From the sequence record OL964749.1: a DNA stretch of 37,063 nt; one strand, given 5' to 3'. Both the position numbers and the translations under genes were made by a program. The notes under the pieces are model-generated. The model was not told the origin of the DNA. It searched no databases and worked only from the letters and a program-made list of their open reading frames with translations. Below are positions 346 through 36,912 of the stretch, one piece after another. The stretch's first letter is position 1. The number at the start of each line of letters is the position of its first letter. This stretch comes from Escherichia phage T7.

Positions 346-366
346 ATAAAGTGATAACCTTTAATC

Positions 367-431
367 ATTGTCTTTATTAATACAACTCATTGTCTTTATT
401 AATATAATCATTGTCTTTATTAATACAACTC
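367..431 (+). repeat. Tandem triplication of a 21-22 bp unit (ATTGTCTTTATTAATACAACTC) spanning the upstream half of promoter phiOL
   Basis: Copies at 367-388, 389-409 (variant AATATAATC) and 410-431; only the third is followed by CACTATAAGGAGAG. Confidence 0.85.
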
Positions 432-443
432 ACTATAAGGAGA
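421..443 (+). promoter_or_regulatory. T7 RNA polymerase promoter phiOL (left-end replication/packaging-associated promoter)
   Basis: TAATACAACTCACTATAAGGAGAG matches the T7 promoter consensus over -17 to +6 except two positions; predicted +1 near 438. Confidence 0.8.
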
Positions 444-494
444 GACAACTTAAAGAGACTTAAAAGATTAATTTAAAATTTATCAAAAAGAGTA

Positions 495-531
495 TTGACT
501 TAAAGTCTAACCTATAGGATACTTACAGCCA
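495..531 (+). promoter_or_regulatory. Strong early sigma70 promoter A1
   Basis: -35 TTGACT (495-500), 17-bp spacer, -10 GATACT (518-523), start near 531; matches the known T7 A1 sequence. Confidence 0.85.
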
Positions 532-642
532 TCGAGAGGGACACGGCGAATAGCCATCCCAATCGACACCGGGGTCAACCGGGCGCACAGTGCCTTCTAG
601 GTGACTTAAGCGCACCACGGCACATAAGGTGAAACAAAACGG

Positions 643-679
643 TTGACAACATGAAGTAAACACGGTACGATGTACCACA
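643..679 (+). promoter_or_regulatory. Early sigma70 promoter A3
   Basis: -35 TTGACA (643-648), 17-bp spacer, -10 TACGAT (666-671); matches T7 A3. The A2 promoter expected between A1 and A3 is absent. Confidence 0.85.
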
Positions 680-789
680 TGAAACGACAGTGAGTCACCA
701 CACTGAAAGGTGATGCGGTCTAACGAAACCTGACCTAAGACGCTCTTTAACAATCTGGTAAATAGCTCTTGAGTGCATGACTAGCGGAT

Positions 790-830
790 AACTCAAGGGT
801 ATCGCAAGGTGCCCTTTATGATATTCACTA
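790..830 (+). promoter_or_regulatory. RNase III processing hairpin R0.3
   Basis: Inverted repeat AAGGGTATCGCAAGGTGCCCTT just upstream of the ocr start, typical of T7 RNase III sites. Confidence 0.55.
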
Positions 831-853
831 ATAACTGCACGAGGTAACACAAG

Positions 854-1549
854 ATGGCTATGTCTAACATGACTTACAACAACGTTTTCGACCACGCTTA
901 CGAAATGCTGAAAGAAAACATCCGTTATGATGACATCCGTGACACTGATGACCTGCACGATGCTATTCACATGGCTGCCGATAATGCAGTTCCGCACTAC
1001 TACGCTGACATCTTTAGCGTAATGGCAAGTGAGGGCATTGACCTTGAGTTCGAAGACTCTGATCTGATGCCTGACACCAAGGACGTAATCCGCATCCTGC
1101 AAGCGCGTATCTATGAGCAATTAACGATTGACCTCTGGGAAGACGCAGAAGACTTGCTCAATGAATACTTGGAGGAAGTCGAGGAAGTCGCACGACAGAA
1201 AGAAATTGACCGCGCTAAGGCCCGTAAAGAACGTCACGAGGGGCGCTTAGAGGCACGCAGATTCAAACGTCGCAACCGCAAGGCACGTAAAGCACACAAA
1301 GCTAAGCGCGAAAGAATGCTTGCTGCGTGGCGATGGGCTGAACGTCAAGAACGGCGTAACCATGAGGTAGCTGTAGATGTACTAGGAAGAACCAATAACG
1401 CTATGCTCCGGGTCAACATGTCCTCTGGGGACTTTAAGGCGCTTGAGGAACGAATCGCGCTGCACTGGCGTAATGCTGACCGGATGGCTATCGCTAATGG
1501 TCTTACGCTCAACATTGATAAGCAACTTGACGCAATGTTAATGGGCTGA
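854..1549 (+). CDS. In-frame fusion: Ocr (gene 0.3 anti-restriction DNA mimic, residues 1 to about 111) joined to the C-terminal roughly 120 aa of gp0.7 (host transcription shut-off domain); kinase domain absent
   Basis: 231-aa ORF; N-terminus [19 protein letters not shown]...[10 protein letters not shown] equals T7 Ocr, then a basic Arg/Lys-rich tail ending 71 bp before gene 1, as gene 0.7 does in T7. Confidence 0.85.
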
Positions 1550-1552
1550 TAG

Positions 1553-1612
1553 TCTTATCTTACAGGTCATCTGCGGGTGGCCTGAATAGGTACGATTTAC
1601 TAACTGGAAGAG
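1553..1612 (+). promoter_or_regulatory. RNase III site R1 upstream of gene 1
   Basis: Hairpin CAGGTCATCTGCGGGTGGCCTG between the fusion ORF stop and the gene 1 start. Confidence 0.6.
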
Positions 1613-1619
1613 GCACTAA

Positions 1620-4271: not shown

Positions 4272-4279
4272 CGCCAAAT

Positions 4280-4302
4280 CAATACGACTCACTATAGAGG
4301 GA
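4280..4302 (+). promoter_or_regulatory. T7 promoter phi1.1A
   Basis: CAATACGACTCACTATAGAGGGA; +1 near 4297. Confidence 0.85.
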
Positions 4303-4354
4303 CAAACTCAAGGTCATTCGCAAGAGTGGCCTTTATGATTGACCTTCTTCCGGT

Positions 4355-4377
4355 TAATACGACTCACTATAGGAGAA
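4355..4377 (+). promoter_or_regulatory. T7 promoter phi1.1B
   Basis: TAATACGACTCACTATAGGAGAA; +1 near 4372. Confidence 0.9.
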
Positions 4378-4455
4378 CCTTAAGGTTTAACTTTAAGACC
4401 CTTAAGTGTTAATTAGAGATTTAAATTAAAGAATTAATAAGAGAGGACTTTAAGT

Positions 4456-4584
4456 ATGCGTAACTTCGAAAAGATGACCAAACGTTCTAACCGTAATGCT
4501 CGTGACTTCGAGGCAACCAAAGGTCGCAAGTTGAATAAGACTAAGCGTGACCGCTCTCACAAGCGTAGCTGGGAGGGTCAGTAA
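4456..4584 (+). CDS. Gene 1.1 protein (42 aa, basic, function unknown)
   Basis: ORF MRNFEKMTKRSNRNARDFEATKGRKLNKTKRDRSHKRSWEGQ with upstream GAGAGGA Shine-Dalgarno; position conserved with T7 gene 1.1. Confidence 0.8.
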   Translation: MRNFEKMTKRSNRNARDFEATKGRKLNKTKRDRSHKRSWEGQ

Positions 4585-4585
4585 G

Positions 4586-4843
4586 ATGGGACGTTTATAT
4601 AGTGGTAATCTGGCAGCATTCAAGGCAGCAACAAACAAGCTGTTCCAGTTAGACTTAGCTGTCATTTATGATGACTGGTATGATGCCTATACAAGAAAAG
4701 ATTGCATACGGTTACGTATTGAGGACAGGAGTGGAAACCTGATTGATACTAGCACCTTCTACCACCACGACGAGGACGTTCTGTTCAATATGTGTACTGA
4801 TTGGTTGAACCATATGTATGACCAGTTGAAGGACTGGAAGTAA
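4586..4843 (+). CDS. Gene 1.2 protein (inhibitor of host dGTPase Dgt), 85 aa
   Basis: MGRLYSGNLAAFKAATNKLFQLDLAVIYDDWYDAYTRKDCIRLRIED...KDWK; matches T7 gp1.2. The ORF-track start at 4547 is an upstream extension. Confidence 0.85.
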   Translation: MGRLYSGNLAAFKAATNKLFQLDLAVIYDDWYDAYTRKDCIRLRIEDRSGNLIDTSTFYHHDEDVLFNMCTDWLNHMYDQLKDWK

Positions 4844-4863
4844 TACGACTCAGTATAGGGACA
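4841..4863 (+). promoter_or_regulatory. T7 promoter phi1.3
   Basis: TAATACGACTCAGTATAGGGACA; +1 near 4858. Confidence 0.85.
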
Positions 4864-4865
4864 AT

Positions 4866-4905
4866 GCTTAAGGTCGCTCTCTAGGAGTGGCCTTAGTCAT
4901 TTAAC
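4866..4905 (+). promoter_or_regulatory. RNase III site R1.3
   Basis: Hairpin TTAAGGTCGCTCTCTAGGAGTGGCCTTAG immediately downstream of phi1.3. Confidence 0.55.
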
Positions 4906-4923
4906 CAATAGGAGATAAACATT

Positions 4924-6003
4924 ATGATGAACATTAAGACTAACCCGTTTAAAGCCGTGTCTTTCGTAGAGTCTGCCATTAAGAAGGCTCTGGATAACGC
5001 TGGGTATCTTATCGCTGAAATCAAGTACGATGGTGTACGCGGGAACATCTGCGTAGACAATACTGCTAACAGTTACTGGCTCTCTCGTGTATCTAAAACG
5101 ATTCCGGCACTGGAGCACTTAAACGGGTTTGATGTTCGCTGGAAGCGTCTACTGAACGATGACCGTTGCTTCTACAAAGATGGCTTTATGCTTGATGGGG
5201 AACTCATGGTCAAGGGCGTAGACTTTAACACAGGGTCCGGCCTACTGCGTACCAAATGGACTGACACGAAGAACCAAGAGTTCCATGAAGAGTTATTCGT
5301 TGAACCAATCCGTAAGAAAGATAAAGTTCCCTTTAAGCTGCACACTGGACACCTTCACATAAAACTGTACGCTATCCTCCCGCTGCACATCGTGGAGTCT
5401 GGAGAAGACTGTGATGTCATGACGTTGCTCATGCAGGAACACGTTAAGAACATGCTGCCTCTGCTACAGGAATACTTCCCTGAAATCGAATGGCAAGCGG
5501 CTGAATCTTACGAGGTCTACGATATGGTAGAACTACATCAACTGTACGAGCAGAAGCGAGCAGAAGGCCATGAGGGTCTCATTGTGAAAGACCCGATGTG
5601 TATCTATAAGCGCGGTAAGAAATCTGGCTGGTGGAAAATGAAACCTGAGAACGAAGCTGACGGTATCATTCAGGGTCTGGTATGGGGTACAAAAGGTCTG
5701 GCTAATGAAGGTAAAGTGATTGGTTTTGAGGTGCTTCTTGAGAGTGGTCGTTTAGTTAACGCCACGAATATCTCTCGCGCCTTAATGGATGAGTTCACTG
5801 AGACAGTAAAAGAGGCCACCCTAAGTCAATGGGGATTCTTTAGCCCATACGGTATTGGCGACAACGATGCTTGTACTATTAACCCTTACGATGGCTGGGC
5901 GTGTCAAATTAGCTACATGGAGGAAACACCTGATGGCTCTTTGCGGCACCCATCGTTCGTAATGTTCCGTGGCACCGAGGACAACCCTCAAGAGAAAATG
6001 TAA
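4924..6003 (+). CDS. ATP-dependent DNA ligase (gene 1.3)
   Basis: 359-aa ORF MMNIKTNPFKAVSFVESAIKK... with the adenylation motif KYDGVRG; matches T7 ligase. Confidence 0.95.
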   Translation: MMNIKTNPFKAVSFVESAIKKALDNAGYLIAEIKYDGVRGNICVDNTANSYWLSRVSKTIPALEHLNGFDVRWKRLLNDDRCFYKDGFMLDGELMVKGVDFNTGSGLLRTKWTDTKNQEFHEELFVEPIRKKDKVPFKLHTGHLHIKLYAILPLHIVESGEDCDVMTLLMQEHVKNMLPLLQEYFPEIEWQAAESYEVYDMVELHQLYEQKRAEGHEGLIVKDPMCIYKRGKKSGWWKMKPENEADGIIQGLVWGTKGLANEGKVIGFEVLLESGRLVNATNISRALMDEFTETVKEATLSQWGFFSPYGIGDNDACTINPYDGWACQISYMEETPDGSLRHPSFVMFRGTEDNPQEKM

Positions 6004-6010
6004 TCACACT

Positions 6011-6038
6011 GGCTCACCTTCGGGTGGGCCTTTCTGCG
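6011..6038 (+). terminator. Early transcription terminator TE (rho-independent, for host RNA polymerase)
   Basis: GC-rich hairpin GGCTCACCTTCGGGTGGGCC followed by TTTCTGCGTTT directly after the ligase stop. Confidence 0.9.
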
Positions 6039-6053
6039 TTTATAAGGAGACAC

Positions 6054-6076
6054 TTTTACGACTCACTAAAGGAGGT
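6054..6076 (+). promoter_or_regulatory. T7 promoter phi1.5 with non-consensus -16/-15 (TTTTACGACTCACTAAAGGAGGT)
   Basis: Matches the class II promoter from -14 to +6; positions -16 and -15 are TT instead of AA, consistent with a deletion junction at the promoter edge. Confidence 0.7.
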
Positions 6077-6083
6077 ACACACC

Positions 6084-6173
6084 ATGATGTACTTAATGCC
6101 ATTACTCATCGTCATTGTAGGATGCCTTGCGCTCCACTGTAGCGATGATGATATGCCAGATGGTCACGCTTAA
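6084..6173 (+). CDS. Gene 1.5 protein (29 aa)
   Basis: ORF MMYLMPLLIVIVGCLALHCSDDDMPDGHA preceded by AAGGAGGT; matches T7 gene 1.5. Confidence 0.7.
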   Translation: MMYLMPLLIVIVGCLALHCSDDDMPDGHA

Positions 6174-6193
6174 TACGACTCACTAAAGGAGAC
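6171..6193 (+). promoter_or_regulatory. T7 promoter phi1.6
   Basis: TAATACGACTCACTAAAGGAGAC; +1 near 6188. Confidence 0.9.
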
Positions 6194-6198
6194 ACTAT

Positions 6199-6465
6199 AT
6201 GTTTCGACTTCATTACAACAAAAGCGTTAAGAATTTCACGGTTCGCCGTGCTGACCGTTCAATCGTATGTGCGAGCGAGCGCCGAGCTAAGATACCTCTT
6301 ATTGGTAACACAGTTCCTTTGGCACCTAGCGTCCACATCATTATCACCCGTTGTGACTTTGAGAAAGCAATAGACAAGAAACGTCCGGTTCTTAGTGTGG
6401 CAGTGACCCGCTTCCCGTTCGTCCGTCTGTTACTCAAACGAATCAAGGAGGTGTTACACCTGTAA
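6199..6465 (+). CDS. Gene 1.6 protein (88 aa here; C-terminal residues may be altered by the adjacent deletion)
   Basis: [32 protein letters not shown]...; position and N-terminus match T7 gene 1.6. Confidence 0.8.
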
Positions 6466-6481
6466 CAAAGGAGCTAACGAT

Positions 6482-6941
6482 ATGACCGAACGTGAACAAG
6501 AGATGATCATTAAGTTGATAGACAATAATGAAGGTCGCCCAGATGATTTGAATGGCTGCGGTATTCTCTGCTCCAATGTCCCTTGCCACCTCTGCCCCGC
6601 AAATAACGATCAAAAGATAACCTTAGGTGAAATCCGAGCGATGGACCCACGTAAACCACATCTGAATAAACCTGAGGTAACTCCTACAGATGACCAGCCT
6701 TCCGCTGAGACAATCGAAGGTGTCACTAAGCCTTCCCACTACATGCTGTTTGACGACATTGAGGCTATCGAAGTGATTGCTCGTTCAATGACCGTTGAGC
6801 AGTTCAAGGGATACTGCTTCGGTAACATCTTAAAGTACAGACTACGTGCTGGTAAGAAGTCAGAGTTAGCGTACTTAGAGAAAGACCTAGCGAAAGCAGA
6901 CTTCTATAAAGAACTCTTTGAGAAACATAAGGATAAATGTT

Positions 6942-6949
<8 letters not shown>
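6482..6949 (+). CDS. Gene 1.7 protein (nucleotide kinase), N-terminally truncated: 155 aa against 196 aa in reference T7
   Basis: ORF MTEREQEMIIKLIDNNEGRPDDLNGCGILCSN...KDKCYA equals the C-terminal 155 aa of gp1.7; AAGGAG lies 8 nt upstream of this internal Met. Confidence 0.8.
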
Positions 6950-7282
<333 letters not shown>

Positions 7283-7285
<3 letters not shown>

Positions 7286-7306
7286 TACGACTCACTATTA
7301 GGGAAG
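7283..7306 (+). promoter_or_regulatory. T7 promoter phi2.5
   Basis: TAATACGACTCACTATTAGGGAAGA. Confidence 0.85.
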
Positions 7307-7350
7307 ACTCCCTCTGAGAAACCAAACGAAACCTAAAGGAGATTAACATT

Positions 7351-8049
7351 ATGGCTAAGAAGATTTTCACCTCTGCGCTGGGTACCGCTGAACCTTACGC
7401 TTACATCGCCAAGCCGGACTACGGCAACGAAGAGCGTGGCTTTGGGAACCCTCGTGGTGTCTATAAAGTTGACCTGACTATTCCCAACAAAGACCCGCGC
7501 TGCCAGCGTATGGTCGATGAAATCGTGAAGTGTCACGAAGAGGCTTATGCTGCTGCCGTTGAGGAATACGAAGCTAATCCACCTGCTGTAGCTCGTGGTA
7601 AGAAACCGCTGAAACCGTATGAGGGTGACATGCCGTTCTTCGATAACGGTGACGGTACGACTACCTTTAAGTTCAAATGCTACGCGTCTTTCCAAGACAA
7701 GAAGACCAAAGAGACCAAGCACATCAATCTTGTTGTGGTTGACTCAAAAGGTAAGAAGATGGAAGACGTTCCGATTATCGGTGGTGGCTCTAAGCTGAAA
7801 GTTAAATATTCTCTGGTTCCATACAAGTGGAACACTGCTGTAGGTGCGAGCGTTAAGCTGCAACTGGAATCCGTGATGCTGGTCGAACTGGCTACCTTTG
7901 GTGGCGGTGAAGACGATTGGGCTGACGAAGTTGAAGAGAACGGCTATGTTGCCTCTGGTTCTGCCAAAGCGAGCAAACCACGCGACGAAGAAAGCTGGGA
8001 CGAAGACGACGAAGAGTCCGAGGAAGCAGACGAAGACGGAGACTTCTAA
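7351..8049 (+). CDS. Single-stranded DNA-binding protein gp2.5
   Basis: 232-aa ORF MAKKIFTSALGTAEPYAYIAKPDYGNEERGFGNPRGVYKVDLTIPN... with acidic C-terminal tail ending ...EADEDGDF. Confidence 0.95.
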   Translation: MAKKIFTSALGTAEPYAYIAKPDYGNEERGFGNPRGVYKVDLTIPNKDPRCQRMVDEIVKCHEEAYAAAVEEYEANPPAVARGKKPLKPYEGDMPFFDNGDGTTTFKFKCYASFQDKKTKETKHINLVVVDSKGKKMEDVPIIGGGSKLKVKYSLVPYKWNTAVGASVKLQLESVMLVELATFGGGEDDWADEVEENGYVASGSAKASKPRDEESWDEDDEESEEADEDGDF

Positions 8050-8469
8050 GTGGAACTGCGGGAGAAAATCCTTGAGCGAATCAAGGTGACTTCCTCTGGG
8101 TGTTGGGAGTGGCAGGGCGCTACGAACAATAAAGGGTACGGGCAGGTGTGGTGCAGCAATACCGGAAAGGTTGTCTACTGTCATCGCGTAATGTCTAATG
8201 CTCCGAAAGGTTCTACCGTCCTGCACTCCTGTGATAATCCATTATGTTGTAACCCTGAACACCTATCCATAGGAACTCCAAAAGAGAACTCCACTGACAT
8301 GGTAAATAAGGGTCGCTCACACAAGGGGTATAAACTTTCAGACGAAGACGTAATGGCAATCATGGAGTCCAGCGAGTCCAATGTATCCTTAGCTCGCACC
8401 TATGGTGTCTCCCAACAGACTATTTGTGATATACGCAAATGGAGGCGACATGGCAGGTTACGGCGCTAA
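8050..8469 (+). CDS. Gene 2.8 protein (139 aa), HNH-type endonuclease-like
   Basis: ORF starting at GTG directly after the 2.5 stop; contains CHRVMSNAPKGSTVLHSCDNPLCCNPEHL, an HNH-like Cys/His motif. Confidence 0.7.
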   Translation: MELREKILERIKVTSSGCWEWQGATNNKGYGQVWCSNTGKVVYCHRVMSNAPKGSTVLHSCDNPLCCNPEHLSIGTPKENSTDMVNKGRSHKGYKLSDEDVMAIMESSESNVSLARTYGVSQQTICDIRKWRRHGRLRR

Positions 8470-8899
8470 AGGAATCCGAAAGGTTGGAGCGTTTCGCTCT
8501 GGCCTAGAGGACAAGGTTTCAAAGCAGTTGGAATCAAAAGGTATTAAATTCGAGTATGAAGAGTGGAAAGTGCCTTATGTAATTCCGGCGAGCAATCACA
8601 CTTACACTCCAGACTTCTTACTTCCAAACGGTATATTCGTTGAGACAAAGGGTCTGTGGGAAAGCGATGATAGAAAGAAGCACTTATTAATTAGGGAGCA
8701 GCACCCCGAGCTAGACATCCGTATTGTCTTCTCAAGCTCACGTACTAAGTTATACAAAGATTCTCCAACGTCTTATGGAGAGTTCTGCGAAAAGCATGGT
8801 ATTAAGTTCGCTGATAAACTGATACCTGCTGAGTGGATAAAGGAACCCAAGAAGGAGGTCCCCTTTGATAGATTAAAAAGGAAAGGAGGAAAGAAATAA
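8450..8899 (+). CDS. Endonuclease I (gene 3), Holliday-junction resolvase
   Basis: 149-aa ORF MAGYGAKGIRKVGAFRSGLEDKVSKQLESKGIKFEYEEWKVPYVIPASNHTYTPDFLLPNG...; the track start at 8402 is an upstream extension. Confidence 0.9.
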   Translation: MAGYGAKGIRKVGAFRSGLEDKVSKQLESKGIKFEYEEWKVPYVIPASNHTYTPDFLLPNGIFVETKGLWESDDRKKHLLIREQHPELDIRIVFSSSRTKLYKDSPTSYGEFCEKHGIKFADKLIPAEWIKEPKKEVPFDRLKRKGGKK

Positions 8900-9354
8900 T
8901 GGCTCGTGTACAGTTTAAACAACGTGAATCTACTGACGCAATCTTTGTTCACTGCTCGGCTACCAAGCCAAGTCAGAATGTTGGTGTCCGTGAGATTCGC
9001 CAGTGGCACAAAGAGCAGGGTTGGCTCGATGTGGGATACCACTTTATCATCAAGCGAGACGGTACTGTGGAGGCAGGACGAGATGAGATGGCTGTAGGCT
9101 CTCACGCTAAGGGTTACAACCACAACTCTATCGGCGTCTGCCTTGTTGGTGGTATCGACGATAAAGGTAAGTTCGACGCTAACTTTACGCCAGCCCAAAT
9201 GCAATCCCTTCGCTCACTGCTTGTCACACTGCTGGCTAAGTACGAAGGCGCTGTGCTTCGCGCCCATCATGAGGTGGCGCCGAAGGCTTGCCCTTCGTTC
9301 GACCTTAAGCGTTGGTGGGAGAAGAACGAACTGGTCACTTCTGACCGTGGATAA
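8899..9354 (+). CDS. T7 lysozyme (gene 3.5), N-acetylmuramoyl-L-alanine amidase and RNA polymerase inhibitor
   Basis: 151-aa ORF MARVQFKQRESTDAIFVHCSATKPSQNVGVREIRQWHKEQGWLDVGYHFIIKRDGTVEAG...; identical to T7 lysozyme as I recall it. Confidence 0.97.
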   Translation: MARVQFKQRESTDAIFVHCSATKPSQNVGVREIRQWHKEQGWLDVGYHFIIKRDGTVEAGRDEMAVGSHAKGYNHNSIGVCLVGGIDDKGKFDANFTPAQMQSLRSLLVTLLAKYEGAVLRAHHEVAPKACPSFDLKRWWEKNELVTSDRG

Positions 9355-9355
9355 T

Positions 9356-9377
9356 TAATTGAACTCACTAAAGGGAG

Positions 9378-9378
<1 letters not shown>
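9356..9378 (+). promoter_or_regulatory. T7 promoter phi3.8
   Basis: TAATTGAACTCACTAAAGGGAGA; +1 near 9373. Confidence 0.85.
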
Positions 9379-11239
<1,861 letters not shown>

Positions 11240-11242
<3 letters not shown>

Positions 11243-11262
11243 TACGACTCACTAAAGGCCAC
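11240..11262 (+). promoter_or_regulatory. T7 promoter phi4.3 with altered initially transcribed sequence (GGCCAC instead of GGAGAC)
   Basis: TAATACGACTCACTAAAGG then CCACACAG; consensus through +2, consistent with a deletion junction at +3. Confidence 0.75.
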
Positions 11263-11380
11263 ACAGTCACGCGCTCTGGCGATTCGCTCCAACGAACTGG
11301 CTGACAGTGCATCCACTAAAGTTACCGAGGCTGCCCGTGTGGCAAACCAAGCTCAACAGCTTTCCAAATTCTTTGAGTAA
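11259..11380 (+). pseudogene. Remnant of gene 4.3 lacking RBS, start codon and about 30 N-terminal codons
   Basis: In-frame segment ATQSRALAIRSNELADSASTKVTEAARVANQAQQLSKFFE without an initiator; about 100 bp missing relative to reference. Confidence 0.65.
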
Positions 11381-11399
11381 TCAAACAGGAGAAACCATT

Positions 11400-11669
11400 A
11401 TGTCTAACGTAGCTGAAACTATCCGTCTATCCGATACAGCTGACCAGTGGAACCGTCGAGTCCACATCAACGTTCGCAACGGTAAGGCGACTATGGTTTA
11501 CCGCTGGAAGGACTCTAAGTCCTCTAAGAATCACACTCAGCGTATGACGTTGACAGATGAGCAAGCACTGCGTCTGGTCAATGCGCTTACCAAAGCTGCC
11601 GTGACAGCAATTCATGAAGCTGGTCGCGTCAATGAAGCTATGGCTATCCTCGACAAGATTGATAACTAA
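11400..11669 (+). CDS. Gene 4.5 protein (89 aa)
   Basis: ORF MSNVAETIRLSDTADQWNRRVHINVRNGKATMVYRWKDSK... preceded by CAGGAGAA; the track start at 11307 is an upstream extension. Confidence 0.85.
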   Translation: MSNVAETIRLSDTADQWNRRVHINVRNGKATMVYRWKDSKSSKNHTQRMTLTDEQALRLVNALTKAAVTAIHEAGRVNEAMAILDKIDN

Positions 11670-11679
11670 GAGTGGTATC

Positions 11680-11713
11680 CTCAAGGTCGCCAAAGTGGTG
11701 GCCTTCATGAATA
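11680..11713 (+). promoter_or_regulatory. RNase III site R4.7
   Basis: Hairpin CAAGGTCGCCAAAGTGGTGGCCTT just downstream of the 4.5 stop. Confidence 0.55.
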
Positions 11714-11736
11714 CTATTCGACTCACTATAGGAGAT
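11714..11736 (+). promoter_or_regulatory. T7 promoter phi4.7
   Basis: CTATTCGACTCACTATAGGAGAT; +1 near 11731, 12 nt before the gene 4.7 ATG. Confidence 0.7.
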
Positions 11737-11742
11737 ATTACC

Positions 11743-11994
11743 ATGCGTGACCCTAAAGTTATCCAAGCAGAAATCGCTAAACTGGAAGCTGAACTGGAGG
11801 ACGTTAAGTACCATGAAGCTAAGACTCGCTCCGCTGTTCACATCTTGAAGAACTTAGGCTGGACTTGGACAAGACAGACTGGCTGGAAGAAACCAGAAGT
11901 TACCAAGCTGAGTCATAAGGTGTTCGATAAGGACACTATGACCCACATCAAGGCTGGTGATTGGGTTAAGGTTGACATGGGAGTTGTAACATGA
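11743..11994 (+). CDS. Gene 4.7 protein, truncated: 83 aa against 135 aa in reference T7
   Basis: ORF MRDPKVIQAEIAKLEAELEDVKYHEAKTRS...VDMGVVT; about 100 bp missing near the 3' end, with the frame-shifted original stop about 55 nt downstream. Confidence 0.7.
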   Translation: MRDPKVIQAEIAKLEAELEDVKYHEAKTRSAVHILKNLGWTWTRQTGWKKPEVTKLSHKVFDKDTMTHIKAGDWVKVDMGVVT

Positions 11995-12068
11995 TTCACA
12001 CAGGTTTCTTGACAGTTGTTTCATATGAAGAGATTGTTAAGTCACGATAATCAATAGGAGAAATCAAT

Positions 12069-14183
12069 ATGATCGTTTCTGACATCGAAGCTAACGCCCT
12101 CTTAGAGAGCGTCACTAAGTTCCACTGCGGGGTTATCTACGACTACTCCACCGCTGAGTACGTAAGCTACCGTCCGAGTGACTTCGGTGCGTATCTGGAT
12201 GCGCTGGAAGCCGAGGTTGCACGAGGCGGTCTTATTGTGTTCCACAACGGTCACAAGTATGACGTTCCTGCATTGACCAAACTGGCAAAGTTGCAATTGA
12301 ACCGAGAGTTCCACCTTCCTCGTGAGAACTGTATTGACACCCTTGTGTTGTCACGTTTGATTCATTCCAACCTCAAGGACACCGATATGGGTCTTCTGCG
12401 TTCCGGCAAGTTGCCCGGAAAACGCTTTGGGTCTCACGCTTTGGAGGCGTGGGGTTATCGCTTAGGCGAGATGAAGGGTGAATACAAAGACGACTTTAAG
12501 CGTATGCTTGAAGAGCAGGGTGAAGAATACGTTGACGGAATGGAGTGGTGGAACTTCAACGAAGAGATGATGGACTATAACGTTCAGGACGTTGTGGTAA
12601 CTAAAGCTCTCCTTGAGAAGCTACTCTCTGACAAACATTACTTCCCTCCTGAGATTGACTTTACGGACGTAGGATACACTACGTTCTGGTCAGAATCCCT
12701 TGAGGCCGTTGACATTGAACATCGTGCTGCATGGCTGCTCGCTAAACAAGAGCGCAACGGGTTCCCGTTTGACACAAAAGCAATCGAAGAGTTGTACGTA
12801 GAGTTAGCTGCTCGCCGCTCTGAGTTGCTCCGTAAATTGACCGAAACGTTCGGCTCGTGGTATCAGCCTAAAGGTGGCACTGAGATGTTCTGCCATCCGC
12901 GAACAGGTAAGCCACTACCTAAATACCCTCGCATTAAGACACCTAAAGTTGGTGGTATCTTTAAGAAGCCTAAGAACAAGGCACAGCGAGAAGGCCGTGA
13001 GCCTTGCGAACTTGATACCCGCGAGTACGTTGCTGGTGCTCCTTACACCCCAGTTGAACATGTTGTGTTTAACCCTTCGTCTCGTGACCACATTCAGAAG
13101 AAACTCCAAGAGGCTGGGTGGGTCCCGACCAAGTACACCGATAAGGGTGCTCCTGTGGTGGACGATGAGGTACTCGAAGGAGTACGTGTAGATGACCCTG
13201 AGAAGCAAGCCGCTATCGACCTCATTAAAGAGTACTTGATGATTCAGAAGCGAATCGGACAGTCTGCTGAGGGAGACAAAGCATGGCTTCGTTATGTTGC
13301 TGAGGATGGTAAGATTCATGGTTCTGTTAACCCTAATGGAGCAGTTACGGGTCGTGCGACCCATGCGTTCCCAAACCTTGCGCAAATTCCGGGTGTACGT
13401 TCTCCTTATGGAGAGCAGTGTCGCGCTGCTTTTGGCGCTGAGCACCATTTGGATGGGATAACTGGTAAGCCTTGGGTTCAGGCTGGCATCGACGCATCCG
13501 GTCTTGAGCTACGCTGCTTGGCTCACTTCATGGCTCGCTTTGATAACGGCGAGTACGCTCACGAGATTCTTAACGGCGACATCCACACTAAGAACCAGAT
13601 AGCTGCTGAACTACCTACCCGAGATAACGCTAAGACGTTCATCTATGGGTTCCTCTATGGTGCTGGTGATGAGAAGATTGGACAGATTGTTGGTGCTGGT
13701 AAAGAGCGCGGTAAGGAACTCAAGAAGAAATTCCTTGAGAACACCCCCGCGATTGCAGCACTCCGCGAGTCTATCCAACAGACACTTGTCGAGTCCTCTC
13801 AATGGGTAGCTGGTGAGCAACAAGTCAAGTGGAAACGCCGCTGGATTAAAGGTCTGGATGGTCGTAAGGTACACGTTCGTAGTCCTCACGCTGCCTTGAA
13901 TACCCTACTGCAATCTGCTGGTGCTCTCATCTGCAAACTGTGGATTATCAAGACCGAAGAGATGCTCGTAGAGAAAGGCTTGAAGCATGGCTGGGATGGG
14001 GACTTTGCGTACATGGCATGGGTACATGATGAAATCCAAGTAGGCTGCCGTACCGAAGAGATTGCTCAGGTGGTCATTGAGACCGCACAAGAAGCGATGC
14101 GCTGGGTTGGAGACCACTGGAACTTCCGGTGTCTTCTGGATACCGAAGGTAAGATGGGTCCTAATTGGGCGATTTGCCACTGA
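12069..14183 (+). CDS. DNA polymerase gp5 (family A, thioredoxin-binding, with 3'-5' exonuclease)
   Basis: 704-aa [39 protein letters not shown]... with exonuclease and polymerase motifs; matches T7 gp5. Confidence 0.98.
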
Positions 14184-14198
14184 TACAGGAGGCTACTC

Positions 14199-14402
14199 AT
14201 GAACGAAAGACACTTAACAGGTGCTGCTTCTGAAATGCTAGTAGCCTACAAATTTACCAAAGCTGGGTACACTGTCTATTACCCTATGCTGACTCAGAGT
14301 AAAGAGGACTTGGTTGTATGTAAGGATGGTAAATTTAGTAAGGTTCAGGTTAAAACATTGTGGTTGACGAAGATGTGCTTATTTTCACATGGGACGAAGT
14401 AA
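14199..14402 (+). CDS. Gene 5.3 (HNH endonuclease-like), frameshift-truncated to 67 aa against 118 aa in reference
   Basis: N-terminus MNERHLTGAASEMLVAYKFTKAGYTVYYPMLTQSKEDLVVCKDGKFSKVQVKT matches gp5.3, then a short out-of-frame tail; about 100 bp missing. Confidence 0.7.
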   Translation: MNERHLTGAASEMLVAYKFTKAGYTVYYPMLTQSKEDLVVCKDGKFSKVQVKTLWLTKMCLFSHGTK

Positions 14403-14466
14403 AAGGTAAGACATCCATGTGTGTCGGCAAGAGAAACAAAGGCATAAAACTATAGGAGAAATTATT

Positions 14467-14766
14467 ATGGCTATGACAAAGAAATTTAAAGTGTCCTTCG
14501 ACGTTACCGCAAAGATGTCGTCTGACGTTCAGGCAATCTTAGAGAAAGATATGCTGCATCTATGTAAGCAGGTCGGCTCAGGTGCGATTGTCCCCAATGG
14601 TAAACAGAAGGAAATGATTGTCCAGTTCCTGACACACGGTATGGAAGGATTGATGACATTCGTAGTACGTACATCATTTCGTGAGGCCATTAAGGACATG
14701 CACGAAGAGTATGCAGATAAGGACTCTTTCAAACAATCTCCTGCAACAGTACGGGAGGTGTTCTGA
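14467..14766 (+). CDS. Gene 5.5 protein (99 aa, H-NS-binding)
   Basis: ORF MAMTKKFKVSFDVTAKMSSDVQAILEKDMLHLCKQVGS...; the track start at 14419 is an upstream extension. Confidence 0.9.
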   Translation: MAMTKKFKVSFDVTAKMSSDVQAILEKDMLHLCKQVGSGAIVPNGKQKEMIVQFLTHGMEGLMTFVVRTSFREAIKDMHEEYADKDSFKQSPATVREVF

Positions 14767-14975
14767 TGTCTGACTACCTGAAAGTGCTGCAAGCAATCAA
14801 AAGTTGCCCTAAGACTTTCCAGTCCAACTATGTACGGAACAATGCGAGCCTCGTAGCGGAGGCCGCTTCCCGTGGTCACATCTCGTGCCTGACTACTAGT
14901 GGACGTAACGGTGGCGCTTGGGAAATCACTGCTTCCGGTACTCGCTTTCTGAAACGAATGGGAGGATGTGTCTAA
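14766..14975 (+). CDS. Gene 5.7 protein (69 aa)
   Basis: ORF MSDYLKVLQAIKSCPKTFQSNYVRNNASLVAEAASRGHISCL...; start overlaps the 5.5 stop. Confidence 0.85.
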   Translation: MSDYLKVLQAIKSCPKTFQSNYVRNNASLVAEAASRGHISCLTTSGRNGGAWEITASGTRFLKRMGGCV

Positions 14976-15133
14976 TGTCTCGTGACCTTGTGACTATTCC
15001 ACGCGATGTGTGGAACGATATACAGGGCTACATCGACTCTCTGGAACGTGAGAACGATAGCCTTAAGAATCAACTAATGGAAGCTGACGAATACGTAGCG
15101 GAACTAGAGGAGAAACTTAATGGCACTTCTTGA
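14975..15133 (+). CDS. Gene 5.9 protein (52 aa, RecBCD inhibitor)
   Basis: ORF MSRDLVTIPRDVWNDIQGYIDSLERENDSLKNQLMEADEYVAELEEKLNGTS; TAATG overlap with the 5.7 stop. Confidence 0.85.
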   Translation: MSRDLVTIPRDVWNDIQGYIDSLERENDSLKNQLMEADEYVAELEEKLNGTS

Positions 15134-16022
15134 CCTTAAACAATTCTATGAGTTACGTGAAGGCTGCGACGACAAGGGTATCCTTGTGATGGACGGCGAC
15201 TGGCTGGTCTTCCAAGCTATGAGTGCTGCTGAGTTTGATGCCTCTTGGGAGGAAGAGATTTGGCACCGATGCTGTGACCACGCTAAGGCCCGTCAGATTC
15301 TTGAGGATTCCATTAAGTCCTACGAGACCCGTAAGAAGGCTTGGGCAGGTGCTCCAATTGTCCTTGCGTTCACCGATAGTGTTAACTGGCGTAAAGAACT
15401 GGTTGACCCGAACTATAAGGCTAACCGTAAGGCCGTGAAGAAACCTGTAGGGTACTTTGAGTTCCTTGATGCTCTCTTTGAGCGCGAAGAGTTCTATTGC
15501 ATCCGTGAGCCTATGCTTGAGGGTGATGACGTTATGGGAGTTATTGCTTCCAATCCGTCTGCCTTCGGTGCTCGTAAGGCTGTAATCATCTCTTGCGATA
15601 AGGACTTTAAGACCATCCCTAACTGTGACTTCCTGTGGTGTACCACTGGTAACATCCTGACTCAGACCGAAGAGTCCGCTGACTGGTGGCACCTCTTCCA
15701 GACCATCAAGGGTGACATCACTGATGGTTACTCAGGGATTGCTGGATGGGGTGATACCGCCGAGGACTTCTTGAATAACCCGTTCATAACCGAGCCTAAA
15801 ACGTCTGTGCTTAAGTCCGGTAAGAACAAAGGCCAAGAGGTTACTAAATGGGTTAAACGCGACCCTGAGCCTCATGAGACGCTTTGGGACTGCATTAAGT
15901 CCATTGGCGCGAAGGCTGGTATGACCGAAGAGGATATTATCAAGCAGGGCCAAATGGCTCGAATCCTACGGTTCAACGAGTACAACTTTATTGACAAGGA
16001 GATTTACCTGTGGAGACCGTAG
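15120..16022 (+). CDS. 5'-3' exonuclease gp6
   Basis: 300-aa ORF MALLDLKQFYELREGCDDKGILVMDGDWLVFQAMSAAEFD...; FEN-family exonuclease matching T7 gp6. Confidence 0.95.
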   Translation: MALLDLKQFYELREGCDDKGILVMDGDWLVFQAMSAAEFDASWEEEIWHRCCDHAKARQILEDSIKSYETRKKAWAGAPIVLAFTDSVNWRKELVDPNYKANRKAVKKPVGYFEFLDALFEREEFYCIREPMLEGDDVMGVIASNPSAFGARKAVIISCDKDFKTIPNCDFLWCTTGNILTQTEESADWWHLFQTIKGDITDGYSGIAGWGDTAEDFLNNPFITEPKTSVLKSGKNKGQEVTKWVKRDPEPHETLWDCIKSIGAKAGMTEEDIIKQGQMARILRFNEYNFIDKEIYLWRP

Positions 16023-16123
16023 CGTATATTGGTCTGGGTCTTTGTGTTCTCGGAGTGTGCCTCATTTCGTGGGGCCTTTGTGACTTAGCCAGAATAATCA
16101 AGTCGTTACACGACACTAAGTGA
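16010..16123 (+). CDS. Gene 6.3 protein (37 aa, hydrophobic), apparent GTG start
   Basis: Small ORF (M)ETVAYIGLGLCVLGVCLISWGLCDLARIIKSLHDTK overlapping the gene 6 stop; position matches T7 gene 6.3. Confidence 0.5.
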   Translation: METVAYIGLGLCVLGVCLISWGLCDLARIIKSLHDTK

Positions 16124-16143
16124 TAAACTCAAGGTCCCTAAAT

Positions 16144-16166
16144 TAATACGACTCACTATAGGGAGA
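16144..16166 (+). promoter_or_regulatory. T7 class III promoter phi6.5
   Basis: TAATACGACTCACTATAGGGAGA, perfect consensus; +1 near 16161. Confidence 0.95.
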
Positions 16167-16220
16167 TAGGGGCCTTTACGATTATTACTTTAAGATTTAA
16201 CTCTAAGAGGAATCTTTATT

Positions 16221-16475
16221 ATGTTAACACCTATTAACCAATTACTTAAGAACCCTAACGATATTCCAGATGTACCTCGTGCAACCGCTGAGTATCTACA
16301 GGTTCGATTCAACTATGCGTACCTCGAAGCGTCTGGTCATATAGGACTTATGCGTGCTAATGGTTGTAGTGAGGCCCACATCTTGGGTTTCATTCAGGGC
16401 CTACAGTATGCCTCTAACGTCATTGACGAGATTGAGTTACGCAAGGAACAACTAAGAGATGATGGGGAGGATTGA
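16221..16475 (+). CDS. Gene 6.5 protein (84 aa)
   Basis: [43 protein letters not shown]... preceded by AAGAGGAA. Confidence 0.85.
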
Positions 16476-16479
16476 CACT

Positions 16480-16746
16480 ATGTGTTTCTCACCGAAAATT
16501 AAAACTCCGAAGATGGATACCAATCAGATTCGAGCCGTTGAGCCAGCGCCTCTGACCCAAGAAGTGTCAAGCGTGGAGTTCGGTGGGTCTTCTGATGAGA
16601 CGGATACCGAGGGCACCGAAGTGTCTGGACGCAAAGGCCTCAAGGTCGAACGTGATGATTCCGTAGCGAAGTCTAAAGCCAGCGGCAATGGCTCCGCTCG
16701 TATGAAATCTTCCATCCGTAAGTCCGCATTTGGAGGTAAGAAGTGA
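16480..16746 (+). CDS. Gene 6.7 protein (88 aa, virion protein)
   Basis: ORF MCFSPKIKTPKMDTNQIRAVEPAPLTQEVSSVEFGG...; the track start at 16459 is an upstream extension. Confidence 0.8.
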   Translation: MCFSPKIKTPKMDTNQIRAVEPAPLTQEVSSVEFGGSSDETDTEGTEVSGRKGLKVERDDSVAKSKASGNGSARMKSSIRKSAFGGKK

Positions 16747-17147
16747 TGTCTGAGTTCACATGTGTGGAGGCTAAGAGTCGCTTCCGTGCAATCCGGTGGA
16801 CTGTGGAACACCTTGGGTTGCCTAAAGGATTCGAAGGACACTTTGTGGGCTACAGCCTCTACGTAGACGAAGTGATGGACATGTCTGGTTGCCGTGAAGA
16901 GTACATTCTGGACTCTACCGGAAAACATGTAGCGTACTTCGCGTGGTGCGTAAGCTGTGACATTCACCACAAAGGAGACATTCTGGATGTAACGTCCGTT
17001 GTCATTAATCATGAGGCAGACTCTAAGGGCTTACAGCGATTCCTAGCGAAACGCTTTAAGTACCTTGCGGAACTCCACGATTGCGATTGGGTGTCTCGTT
17101 GTAAGCATGAAGGCGAGACAATGCGTGTATACTTTAAGGAGGTATAA
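16746..17147 (+). CDS. Gene 7 protein (133 aa)
   Basis: ORF MSEFTCVEAKSRFRAIRWTVEHLGLPKGFEGHFVGYSLYV...; start overlaps the 6.7 stop (GTGATG). Confidence 0.85.
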   Translation: MSEFTCVEAKSRFRAIRWTVEHLGLPKGFEGHFVGYSLYVDEVMDMSGCREEYILDSTGKHVAYFAWCVSCDIHHKGDILDVTSVVINHEADSKGLQRFLAKRFKYLAELHDCDWVSRCKHEGETMRVYFKEV

Positions 17148-17150
17148 GTT

Positions 17151-17438
17151 ATGGGTAAGAAAGTTAAGAAGGCCGTGAAGAAAGTCACCAAGTCCGTTAA
17201 GGAAGGGGCTCGTCCGGTTAAACAGGTTGCTGGCGGTCTAGCTGGTCTGGCTGGTGGTACTGGTGAAGCACAGATGGTGGAAGTACCACAAGCTGCCGCA
17301 CAGATTGTTGACGTACCTGAGAAAGAGGTTTCCACTGAGGACGAAGCACAGACAGAAAGCGGACGCAAGAAAGCTCGTGCTGGCGGTAAGAAATCCTTGA
17401 GTGTAGCCCGTAGCTCCGGTGGCGGTATCAACATTTAA
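17151..17438 (+). CDS. Gene 7.3 protein (tail-associated), 95 aa here (reference about 99 aa)
   Basis: Lys-rich ORF MGKKVKKAVKKVTKSVKEGARPVKQVAGGLAGLAGG... preceded by AAGGAGGT. Confidence 0.8.
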   Translation: MGKKVKKAVKKVTKSVKEGARPVKQVAGGLAGLAGGTGEAQMVEVPQAAAQIVDVPEKEVSTEDEAQTESGRKKARAGGKKSLSVARSSGGGINI

Positions 17439-17451
17439 TCAGGAGGTTATC

Positions 17452-17475
17452 CGTAAGACATGGAGACACATTTAA
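17452..17475 (+). other. Residual 3' end of gene 7.7 (last 7 codons plus stop), retaining the gene 8 ribosome-binding region
   Basis: Only CGTAAGACATGGAGACACATTTAA remains between the 7.3 intergenic AGGAGG and the gene 8 ATG, where reference T7 carries the roughly 130-codon gene 7.7. Confidence 0.65.
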
Positions 17476-19085
17476 TGGCTGAGAAACGAACAGGACTTGC
17501 GGAGGATGGCGCAAAGTCTGTCTATGAGCGTTTAAAGAACGACCGTGCTCCCTATGAGACACGCGCTCAGAATTGCGCTCAATATACCATCCCATCATTG
17601 TTCCCTAAGGACTCCGATAACGCCTCTACAGATTATCAAACTCCGTGGCAAGCCGTGGGCGCTCGTGGTCTGAACAATCTAGCCTCTAAGCTCATGCTGG
17701 CTCTATTCCCTATGCAGACTTGGATGCGACTTACTATATCTGAATATGAAGCAAAGCAGTTACTGAGCGACCCCGATGGACTCGCTAAGGTCGATGAGGG
17801 CCTCTCGATGGTAGAGCGTATCATCATGAACTACATTGAGTCTAACAGTTACCGCGTGACTCTCTTTGAGGCTCTCAAACAGTTAGTCGTAGCTGGTAAC
17901 GTCCTGCTGTACCTACCGGAACCGGAAGGGTCAAACTATAATCCCATGAAGCTGTACCGATTGTCTTCTTATGTGGTCCAACGAGACGCATTCGGCAACG
18001 TTCTGCAAATGGTGACTCGTGACCAGATAGCTTTTGGTGCTCTCCCTGAGGACATCCGTAAGGCTGTAGAAGGTCAAGGTGGTGAGAAGAAAGCTGATGA
18101 GACAATCGACGTGTACACTCACATCTATCTGGATGAGGACTCAGGTGAATACCTCCGATACGAAGAGGTCGAGGGTATGGAAGTCCAAGGCTCCGATGGG
18201 ACTTATCCTAAAGAGGCTTGCCCATACATCCCGATTCGGATGGTCAGACTAGATGGTGAATCCTACGGTCGTTCGTACATTGAGGAATACTTAGGTGACT
18301 TACGGTCCCTTGAAAATCTCCAAGAGGCTATCGTCAAGATGTCCATGATTAGCTCTAAGGTTATCGGCTTAGTGAATCCTGCTGGTATCACCCAGCCACG
18401 CCGACTGACCAAAGCTCAGACTGGTGACTTCGTTACTGGTCGTCCAGAAGACATCTCGTTCCTCCAACTGGAGAAGCAAGCAGACTTTACTGTAGCTAAA
18501 GCCGTAAGTGACGCTATCGAGGCTCGCCTTTCGTTTGCCTTTATGTTGAACTCTGCGGTTCAGCGTACAGGTGAACGTGTGACCGCCGAAGAGATTCGGT
18601 ATGTAGCTTCTGAACTTGAAGATACTTTAGGTGGTGTCTACTCTATCCTTTCTCAAGAATTACAATTGCCTCTGGTACGAGTGCTCTTGAAGCAACTACA
18701 AGCCACGCAACAGATTCCTGAGTTACCTAAGGAAGCCGTAGAGCCAACCATTAGTACAGGTCTGGAAGCAATTGGTCGAGGACAAGACCTTGATAAGCTG
18801 GAGCGGTGTGTCACTGCGTGGGCTGCACTGGCACCTATGCGGGACGACCCTGATATTAACCTTGCGATGATTAAGTTACGTATTGCCAACGCTATCGGTA
18901 TTGACACTTCTGGTATTCTACTCACCGAAGAACAGAAGCAACAGAAGATGGCCCAACAGTCTATGCAAATGGGTATGGATAATGGTGCTGCTGCGCTGGC
19001 TCAAGGTATGGCTGCACAAGCTACAGCTTCACCTGAGGCTATGGCTGCTGCCGCTGATTCCGTAGGTTTACAGCCGGGAATTTAA
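17475..19085 (+). CDS. Head-to-tail connector (portal) protein gp8
   Basis: 536-aa ORF MAEKRTGLAEDGAKSVYERLKNDRAPYETRAQNCAQYTIP...; the track start at 17460 is an upstream in-frame extension. Confidence 0.95.
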   Translation: MAEKRTGLAEDGAKSVYERLKNDRAPYETRAQNCAQYTIPSLFPKDSDNASTDYQTPWQAVGARGLNNLASKLMLALFPMQTWMRLTISEYEAKQLLSDPDGLAKVDEGLSMVERIIMNYIESNSYRVTLFEALKQLVVAGNVLLYLPEPEGSNYNPMKLYRLSSYVVQRDAFGNVLQMVTRDQIAFGALPEDIRKAVEGQGGEKKADETIDVYTHIYLDEDSGEYLRYEEVEGMEVQGSDGTYPKEACPYIPIRMVRLDGESYGRSYIEEYLGDLRSLENLQEAIVKMSMISSKVIGLVNPAGITQPRRLTKAQTGDFVTGRPEDISFLQLEKQADFTVAKAVSDAIEARLSFAFMLNSAVQRTGERVTAEEIRYVASELEDTLGGVYSILSQELQLPLVRVLLKQLQATQQIPELPKEAVEPTISTGLEAIGRGQDLDKLERCVTAWAALAPMRDDPDINLAMIKLRIANAIGIDTSGILLTEEQKQQKMAQQSMQMGMDNGAAALAQGMAAQATASPEAMAAAADSVGLQPGI

Positions 19086-19105
19086 TACGACTCACTATAG
19101 GGAGA
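19083..19105 (+). promoter_or_regulatory. T7 class III promoter phi9
   Basis: TAATACGACTCACTATAGGGAGA; +1 near 19100. Confidence 0.95.
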
Positions 19106-20108: not shown

Positions 20109-20121
20109 TAGACTTCGAAAT

Positions 20122-36773: not shown

Positions 36774-36912
36774 GGTCTTCCTGACCGACTGATGGCTCAT
36801 CTATACCTAAAGATAGGCCATCCTATCAGTGTCACCTAAAGAGGGTCTTAGAGAGGGCCTATGGAGTTCCTATAGGGTCCTTTAAAATATACCATAAAAA
36901 TCTGAGTGACTA

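Follow-up and report, generated by a model that had tools for sequence, protein, structure and literature searches.

The Escherichia phage T7 record OL964749.1 raises the question of why several deletions in one phage genome should share the same length, and why some of their ends should lie in T7 promoters. The whole record, a stretch of 37,063 nucleotides called the window here, is 7.2% shorter than the 39,937 bp of the reference. Breakpoints were mapped against the T7 reference V01146 by BLAST with exact junction extension, and eleven internal deletions were found (Table 1). The earlier note had put the deletions at 1.6/1.7, 4.3, 4.7, 5.3 and the right end at about 100 bp; alignment puts each of the five at exactly 100 bp, the offset to the reference shifting by a net 100 at its junction. 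The joins are seamless, with no inserted scar bases, and microhomology is 0 bp at four of them and 3 bp (AGG) at 4.3. A spontaneous size distribution would not yield exactly 100 bp five times. The first of the five cuts 4 nt from the end of gene 1.6 and 97 nt from the start of gene 1.7, and the frameshifts in 4.7 and 5.3 leave a truncated 83-aa ORF (window 11743-11994) and a 67-aa ORF (window 14199-14402), respectively.

Table 1 Deletions and associated features of the window (strand + throughout), with protospacers centred in the 100-bp blocks.
Feature	Window position	T7 position (V01146)	Size (bp)	Repeat, microhomology or effect	Protospacer (T7 position; PAM)
A2 deletion	574..582 (kept repeat copy)		104	9-bp repeat GTCAACCGG	
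ocr-0.7 deletion	1173..1185 (kept repeat copy)		1480	13-bp repeat AGGAAGTCGAGGA	
Gene 1.4 deletion	6056..6057 (junction)	7608-7763	156	exact CDS, no microhomology	
1.6/1.7 deletion	6455..6456 (junction)	8163-8262	100	no microhomology	ACCCGCCAGTACAAGCAACT (8203-8222; GGG)
Gene 3.8 deletion, undesigned	9370..9378 (kept repeat copy)		277	9-bp repeat AAAGGGAGA, phi3.8 -3..+6	
phi4.3 promoter	11240..11262			-17 to +2 retained	
Gene 4.3 deletion	11256..11258 (junction)	13340..13343-13439..13442	100	3-bp AGG ambiguity	TGTACATACGAACCAGCAGT, minus strand (13381-13400; CCA on + strand)
Gene 4.7 deletion	11987..11988 (junction)	14172-14271	100	frameshift	GCACAAGTGTCATACATCAC (14212-14231; AGG)
Gene 5.3 deletion	14357..14358 (junction)	16642-16741	100	frameshift	TTAGGCTAGGTGGATGCGGT (16682-16701; AGG)
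Gene 7.3 deletion, in-frame	17195..17205		12	between short direct repeats (11 bp), loss of KKVV	
Gene 7.7 deletion	17451..17452 (junction)	19848-20216	369	no microhomology	
Right-end deletion	36799..36800 (junction)	39565-39664	100	between gene 19.5 and right terminal repeat	CCCTATAGAGTCAAGTCCTA (39605-39624; AGG)

In all five deleted 100-bp blocks, exactly offsets 41-60 are occupied by a 20-nt SpCas9 protospacer that is followed by an NGG PAM. Such a protospacer and PAM are found, on either strand, at 10.3% of T7 positions, and the joint chance of five centred protospacers is ~3.8e-5 with the four placements at gene 4.3 allowed for. CiPGr, a CRISPR genome reduction of T7 (Yuan, Shi, Jiang and Ma 2022, Nucleic Acids Res 50:13183; PMC9825161), used a 'cassette-100' library giving 100-bp deletions by design from 50-bp homology arms and a spacer, as well as a 'cassette-gene' library for whole-gene deletions. 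The suggestion that a fixed size hints at a design rule is therefore confirmed by the published cassette-100 design and by the protospacer geometry in the sequence, and the same junctions recur in the sibling clones OL964748 and OL964750. The window is very probably a T7 clone from the CiPGr experiment, its five 100-bp deletions being cassette-100 edits of 40 + 20 + 40 bp. It is most probably T7_1t2 (T7_100_t2), whose genome reduction is given as 7.1% (PMC9825161), and we infer that these exact five spacers were present in the library. The 100-bp regularity is already known as a published design and is not a new natural deletion mechanism.

According to this reading, the phage would have gone through hundreds of transfers on an E. 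coli host equipped with SpCas9, lambda Red and the pooled plasmid library, each cassette-100 plasmid supplying one spacer and a repair template of 2 x 50 bp that joins the sequences 40 bp either side of the protospacer. A Cas9 cut of the phage genome, followed by recombination with the template, would leave a seamless deletion of exactly 100 bp, which would destroy the target, give immunity to that guide and shift the reading frame. Five such edits would have built up, in 1.7, 4.3, 4.7, 5.3 and downstream of 19.5, and two whole-gene templates, 1.4 and 7.7, would also have been taken up.

Four of the protospacers target non-essential annotated genes (1.7, 4.3, 4.7 and 5.3), and the fifth, at the right end, falls in no annotated gene, 67 bp beyond the 19.5 stop codon as annotated. 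A search there for an ORF that would make this target genic returned only a 22-aa ORF (39557-39625) and a 36-aa minus-strand ORF, both unconvincing; gp19.5 losses were counted as undesigned by Yuan et al. 2022 (PMC9825161). As for chip-oligo synthesis errors in the 50-bp arms, no mismatch was found within 50 bp of the designed junctions, the nearest being 69 bp away.

The perfect match of the boundaries to the design, and the authors' calling of deletions with breseq against the reference (PMC9825161), would also fit gaps that are bookkeeping artefacts, the sequence having been derived from the reference by cutting out the expected or called deletions, without assembly. This is very unlikely. 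The record holds many features foreign to the reference that no design file would contain. Among them, 43 bp are re-duplicated at phiOL, the left repeat array has changes of +13/-13 bp, the terminal repeats carry mirrored deletions, and some point mutations are private. In addition, disruptions of 4.7 and 5.3 were detected by PCR in the paper (PMC9825161), and exact boundaries are expected from homology-templated repair anyway.

The deletions of 1.4 and 7.7 match the cassette-gene engineered type, with starts at CDS boundaries, no microhomology and the same junctions as cassette-gene clones. The 7.7 deletion begins at the first CDS base (19848), and 24 nt remain in front of gene 8. Two whole-gene-style deletions in a clone family of the '100' library are not predicted by the published methods. 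At the ends of these two and of the five 100-bp deletions, no direct repeats of at least ~5 bp were found (0-3 bp).

The remaining four deletions, A2 (9 bp), ocr-0.7 (13 bp), 3.8 (9 bp) and 7.3 (11 bp), each retain one copy of a direct repeat. The first eliminates the E. coli promoter A2, and the second creates an in-frame Ocr-gp0.7 C-terminal fusion ORF (window 854-1549). The 3.8 deletion differs from the designed 3.8 deletion of the cassette-gene clones (292 bp, T7 11254-11545). In the A2 and 3.8 junction searches, two-piece wild-type matches outrank one-piece matches where microhomology is present. The A2 and ocr-0.7 deletions had been taken for possibly older, repeat-mediated events. Their repeats support the second half of that description, but an older origin of these two or of the 3.8 deletion is not supported, because T7_10L, an early clone of the same study, is colinear with V01146. 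The 1480-bp ocr-0.7 junction also recurs in the separate cassette-gene lineage, whose later clones carry different deletions at ocr-0.7 (563/676 bp). This region is a known adaptive hot spot, where position 1,253 has been reported as the site of a deletion of 1,489 bp with the homology GAGGAAGTCG (PMC8923235), and GAGGAAGTCG is a neighbouring register of the ocr-0.7 repeat in the window. All four deletions very probably formed with no template involved, through recombination or slippage at the 9-13-bp direct repeats, and those at 3.8 and ocr-0.7 probably served as escapes from Cas9 cutting. Deletion between direct repeats can be stimulated by breaks, and we infer that Cas9 breaks did so here; a literature search for T7-specific break-stimulated direct-repeat deletion returned mostly mitochondrial papers.

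The window carries 35-39 point differences, which were considered as Cas9 PAM-escape mutations. This was rejected, since neither comparison is significant: GG/CC holds 11 of 35 where 19.6% is expected (p = 0.065), and when only G/C sites are counted it holds 11 of 22, the expectation being 40% (p = 0.24). The paper places only ~23.5% in spacer or PAM regions (PMC9825161).

As for the promoters, the earlier note had set two breakpoints exactly at phi3.8 +6 and phi4.3 +2. These positions hold for the right-most placement but not as exact sites, both junctions being ambiguous: the 3.8 breakpoint ranges from between -4 and -3 to between +6 and +7 of phi3.8, across AAAGGGAGA, and the 4.3 breakpoint from between -2 and -1 to between +2 and +3 of phi4.3. 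The design-consistent placement of the 4.3 deletion is T7 13341-13440, corresponding to +1..+100 of phi4.3, and the initially transcribed sequence is changed from GGAGAC to GGCCAC. A third promoter-adjacent breakpoint, previously missed, is the end of the 1.4 deletion at -15 of phi1.5, where positions -17..-15 are changed from TAA to TTT.

Promoters make up well under 1% of the genome, and 3 of 22 breakpoints lie inside them (phi1.5 -15, phi3.8 -3..+6, phi4.3 +1); the sibling T7_1t1 moreover has a 75-bp promoter-to-promoter deletion (phi1.1A/phi1.1B). Such a pattern could suggest that deletion is linked to transcription, with initiation complexes of T7 RNA polymerase or R-loops, for instance, steering breaks to +1..+6, yet this is extremely unlikely given where each breakpoint comes from. 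The phi4.3 breakpoint is exactly the protospacer start minus 40 and arises because the 40-bp design flank reaches +1, and that of phi1.5 is the stop codon TAA of gene 1.4, which overlaps promoter positions -17..-15. The phi3.8 breakpoint arises because the promoter's AAAGGGAGA supplies microhomology, and at both phi3.8 and phi1.1A/B the direct repeat is the conserved promoter sequence itself. T7 class II genes also begin 10-45 bp past promoters, so that gene-aimed deletions fall there. The promoter-adjacent breakpoints are by-products and have no mechanism in common with the 100-bp size, phi3.8 being a microhomology event and phi4.3 a consequence of flank geometry.

Two more speculative ideas, both unlikely, concern the promoters and the private changes. 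T7 promoters may be preferred microhomology substrates for break-stimulated deletions, in which case loss of class II genes flanked by promoters would be intrinsically easier; examples are phi3.8 AAAGGGAGA and an internal copy of it in the window, and, in the sibling clone, phi1.1A and phi1.1B. Separately, the private changes of the clone (RNAP R357H and E477D, phi10 +2 G>T, phi13 +6 A>C) could represent a co-adaptation of transcription in the fastest-killing isolate.

A spontaneous origin of the 100-bp deletions, through some mechanism of fixed length inherent in T7 replication or recombination, is effectively refuted and has a negligible probability: although spontaneous T7 deletions do recur in these non-essential regions, including 769-1019-bp deletions of 4.3-4.7 and a ~1.5-kb ocr-0.7 deletion in unrelated evolution experiments, those documented lie between 7-13-bp repeats and vary in size, whereas microhomology is absent at four of the five 100-bp junctions, an NGG protospacer is centred in all five blocks (p ~4e-5), and none of these junctions occurs in T7 records outside the Yuan et al. 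study. The outcome is a clean negative, in that the regular size is a signature of human design and not of biology. It also indicates that an engineered genome can be recognised from sequence alone when its deletions have one fixed length, its junctions bear no scar and a protospacer flanked by a PAM always lies at the same offset.

The closest records to the window are OL964748 (T7_1t1) and OL964750 (T7_1t3), which have junctions in common with it. The cassette-100 siblings share its seamless, exactly 100-bp deletions with the same junctions (1.7, 4.3, 4.7, 5.3 and right end), as well as the parental background with the undesigned A2, ocr-0.7, 3.8 and 7.3 deletions. The 1.6/1.7 junction is identical in both siblings, the 5.3 junction is found among database records only in OL964750, and the right-end junction is confined to the two '1t' clones; a search of 50,697 phage records matched the right-end and 5.3 junctions in '1t' clones only. 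The window differs from T7_1t1 in having the 5.3 deletion and in not having the 75-bp phi1.1A/B deletion, and from T7_1t3 in having the 7.7 deletion; the four point mutations in RNAP, phi10 and phi13 are private to it. The cassette-gene clones (T7_30S to T7_300L.2, MZ3752xx) have 1.4 and 7.7 junctions identical to those of the window, the former in T7_30S, 80S, 110S and 300L.2 and the latter in eight late clones, but carry gene-length deletions of 1.7, 4.3, 4.7 and 5.3 (536, 198, 408 and 338 bp) in place of 100 bp. The 100-bp junctions recur in cassette-100 clones; neither cassette-gene clones nor other T7 stocks have them. The A2, ocr-0.7, 3.8 and 7.3 deletions resemble the classical direct-repeat deletions of T7 (Studier et al. 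1979 and Cunningham et al. 1997, as cited in PMC8923235 and PMC6042481), unlike the five 100-bp, 1.4 and 7.7 deletions, which have no such repeats. One genome thereby displays the contrast between such engineered edits and the repeat-mediated deletions that the phage makes unaided.

Breakpoints were located by aligning the window to the T7 reference V01146 and extending the flanks base by base, and this extension detected no inserted bases at any of the 11 junctions. The repeated size of about 100 bp claimed in the earlier note proved real, five deletions being exactly 100 bp long in the alignment. As for microhomology versus engineered scars at these five joins, four have no repeat and that in gene 4.3 has three ambiguous bases.

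Deletions in the window relative to V01146 (slashes and dots give alternative placements)
Locus	T7 coordinates	Window coordinates	Size	Junction
A2 promoter	541/550-644/653		104 bp	9-bp repeat GTCAACCGG
ocr-0.7	1244/1257-2723/2736		1480 bp	13-bp repeat AGGAAGTCGAGGA
Gene 1.4	7608-7763	6056-6057	156 bp	exact CDS, no repeat
1.6/1.7	8163-8262		100 bp	no repeat
Gene 3.8	11177/86-11453/62		277 bp	9-bp repeat AAAGGGAGA
Gene 4.3	13340..43-13439..42		100 bp	3 ambiguous bases
Gene 4.7	14172-14271		100 bp	no repeat
Gene 5.3	16642-16741		100 bp	no repeat
Gene 7.3	within gene	17195-17205	12 bp, in-frame, loses KKVV	between CGTTAAGRAAG repeats
Gene 7.7	19848-20216	17451-17452	369 bp	no repeat
Right end	39565-39664	36799-36800	100 bp	no repeat

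All SpCas9 N20-NGG sites of either strand were then listed for each deleted block and its surroundings. A plus-strand protospacer occupies offsets 41-60, with its PAM at 61-63, in all four unambiguous 100-bp blocks, and with the 4.3 block placed at 13341-13440 a minus-strand protospacer (T7 13381-13400) lies at the same offsets 41-60. Such a protospacer, on either strand, is available at only 10.3% of T7 genome positions, giving a joint chance of ~3.8e-5 for the five blocks with four placements allowed for 4.3. The rule is therefore 40 bp, a 20-nt target and 40 bp. In the CRISPR genome reduction method CiPGr of Yuan et al. 2022, chip-synthesised 200-nt cassettes carry one 20-nt spacer and a 2 × 50-bp repair template, with gp4.7 and gp5.3 as worked examples (PMC9825161). 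The centred protospacers and this published design bear out the earlier suggestion of a design rule: the 100-bp regularity is a published engineering rule, and the feature is already known. As a result of these edits, gp1.6 acquires an altered 88-aa C-terminus, the first 33 codons of gp1.7 are missing, gene 4.3 is left without its ribosome-binding site and start codon, and genes 4.7 and 5.3 are truncated by frameshift to 83 and 67 aa, respectively.

In a database comparison, the first 20 kb of the window are 99.7-99.9% identical to phage T7, and the best-matching records are the 'Mutant Escherichia phage T7' clones OL964748 (T7_1t1, 37,088 bp) and OL964750 (T7_1t3, 37,455 bp). Among 50,697 phage records, the 100-bp junctions of 5.3 and the right end occur only in these '1t' clones. 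Compared with T7_1t1, the window keeps the 75 bp that separate phi1.1A from phi1.1B and has an additional 100-bp deletion in gene 5.3; it is most probably the third sibling, T7_1t2. Both promoters are present in the window (4280-4302 and 4355-4377); in T7_1t1 (4281-4297) they have recombined, with a 75-bp deletion and a 17-bp overlap. T7 was passaged ~300 times on MG1655 with SpCas9, lambda Red and the library; a final competition followed, from which three plaques of each library were sequenced, and the best T7 isolate, T7_100_t2, had its genome cut by 7.1% (PMC9825161). The window is 7.2% below 39,937 bp in length. Faster killing is reported for its clone.

The right-end target lies 67 bp past the stop codon of 19.5 and outside all annotated genes, the central protospacer of the block being intergenic. 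The deletion removes part of the array of short repeats that separates gene 19.5 from the right terminal repeat, and leaves a viable phage. In the same region T7_300L.2 has a 356-bp deletion (T7 39366-39718), and in other clones 189 bp are deleted, with a 9-bp repeat. The deletions of genes 1.4 and 7.7 are of the whole-gene kind made by the 'cassette-gene' library (PMC9825161), although the clone family is named for cassette-100, the library of 100-bp deletions. The 1.4 and 7.7 junctions are identical in the window and in cassette-gene clones, which otherwise carry gene-length, repeat-free deletions in 1.7 (536 bp), 3.8 (292 bp), 4.3 (198 bp), 4.7 (408 bp, exact CDS) and 5.3 (338 bp). Yuan et al. 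2022 make no mention of whole-gene deletions in cassette-100 clones (PMC9825161); their presence suggests oligo-pool cross-amplification, culture carry-over or phage recombination. Neither these edits nor the intergenic target changes the verdict on the 100-bp deletions.

Two breakpoints had been placed at initially transcribed promoter positions. That at phi3.8 +6 holds only as the right-most placement: AAAGGGAGA covers -3 to +6 (+1 = T7 11180) and has a second copy within gene 3.8 (11454-11462), making this a microhomology junction rather than a promoter effect. At phi4.3 (+1 = T7 13341), the designed block starts exactly at +1 because gene 4.3 offers its first usable target 40 bp downstream; GG at +1/+2 happens to be restored by the incoming bases (window, TAATACGACTCACTAAAGGCCAC). 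In a third case, overlooked earlier, the gene 1.4 stop codon TAA forms phi1.5 -17 to -15 and becomes TTT on CDS removal. All three follow from how closely class II promoters abut gene boundaries in T7, and they give no indication of a transcription-linked deletion mechanism.

The window has 39 point differences from V01146, with a strong transversion bias (~18 of 39 G>T or C>A). Putative changes private to its clone, 20140 (phi10 +2 G>T), 24514 (phi13 +6 A>C), 2689 (R357H) and 3050 (E477D), fall in initially transcribed positions of two class III promoters and in gene 1, encoding T7 RNA polymerase. The 35095 A>G change (gp17 N158D) is known as a recurrent mutation of laboratory adaptation (PMC6042481, PMC9825161). 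At the two ends (window 1-404 and 36913-37063), both terminal repeats share identical 1-nt and 8-bp (CCTTCGGT, T7 71-78) deletions and are therefore 151 bp rather than 160 bp long; in cassette-gene clones the mirrored terminal-repeat deletion is one of 18 bp instead. The left short-repeat array shows one +13-bp and one -13-bp change, and ~43 bp around phiOL (window ~362-404) partially re-duplicate T7 372-399 and 378-392.

The A2, ocr-0.7, 3.8 and 7.3 deletions each retain one direct-repeat copy; they are repeat-mediated and arose within the experiment. The earlier note was thus right about the repeats at A2 and ocr-0.7 but not about greater age, since T7_10L, another clone of the study, is colinear with the reference and the parent therefore had none of these deletions. 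The 7.3 deletion occurs in all three '1t' clones and is absent from the cassette-gene clones examined. Undesigned 'large fragment' losses were reported at gp0.3-0.6, gp4.3-4.7 and gp19.5, some probably CRISPR-escape mutations (PMC9825161), and we infer that Cas9 breaks stimulated the undesigned deletions here. The ocr-0.7 locus is a known site of adaptive deletions, including one of 1,489 bp at position 1,253 whose homology, GAGGAAGTCG, is an adjacent register of the same repeat (PMC8923235). The 1480-bp junction recurs in cassette-gene clones MZ375235, MZ375236 and MZ375238 and, with 1 nt different, in the unrelated recombinant T7 records PV223880-83; at this locus, different deletions are seen in later cassette-gene clones (563 bp, 12-bp repeat; 676 bp, 9-bp repeat). 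In the window the 1480-bp deletion creates an in-frame 231-aa ORF (854-1549) fusing Ocr(1-~110) to the gp0.7 C-terminus. The natural Yersinia phage YpP-Y (JQ965700, 1275-1961) carries an almost identical Ocr-gp0.7 fusion, joined three codons away, and the same repeat-mediated loss has therefore happened in nature.
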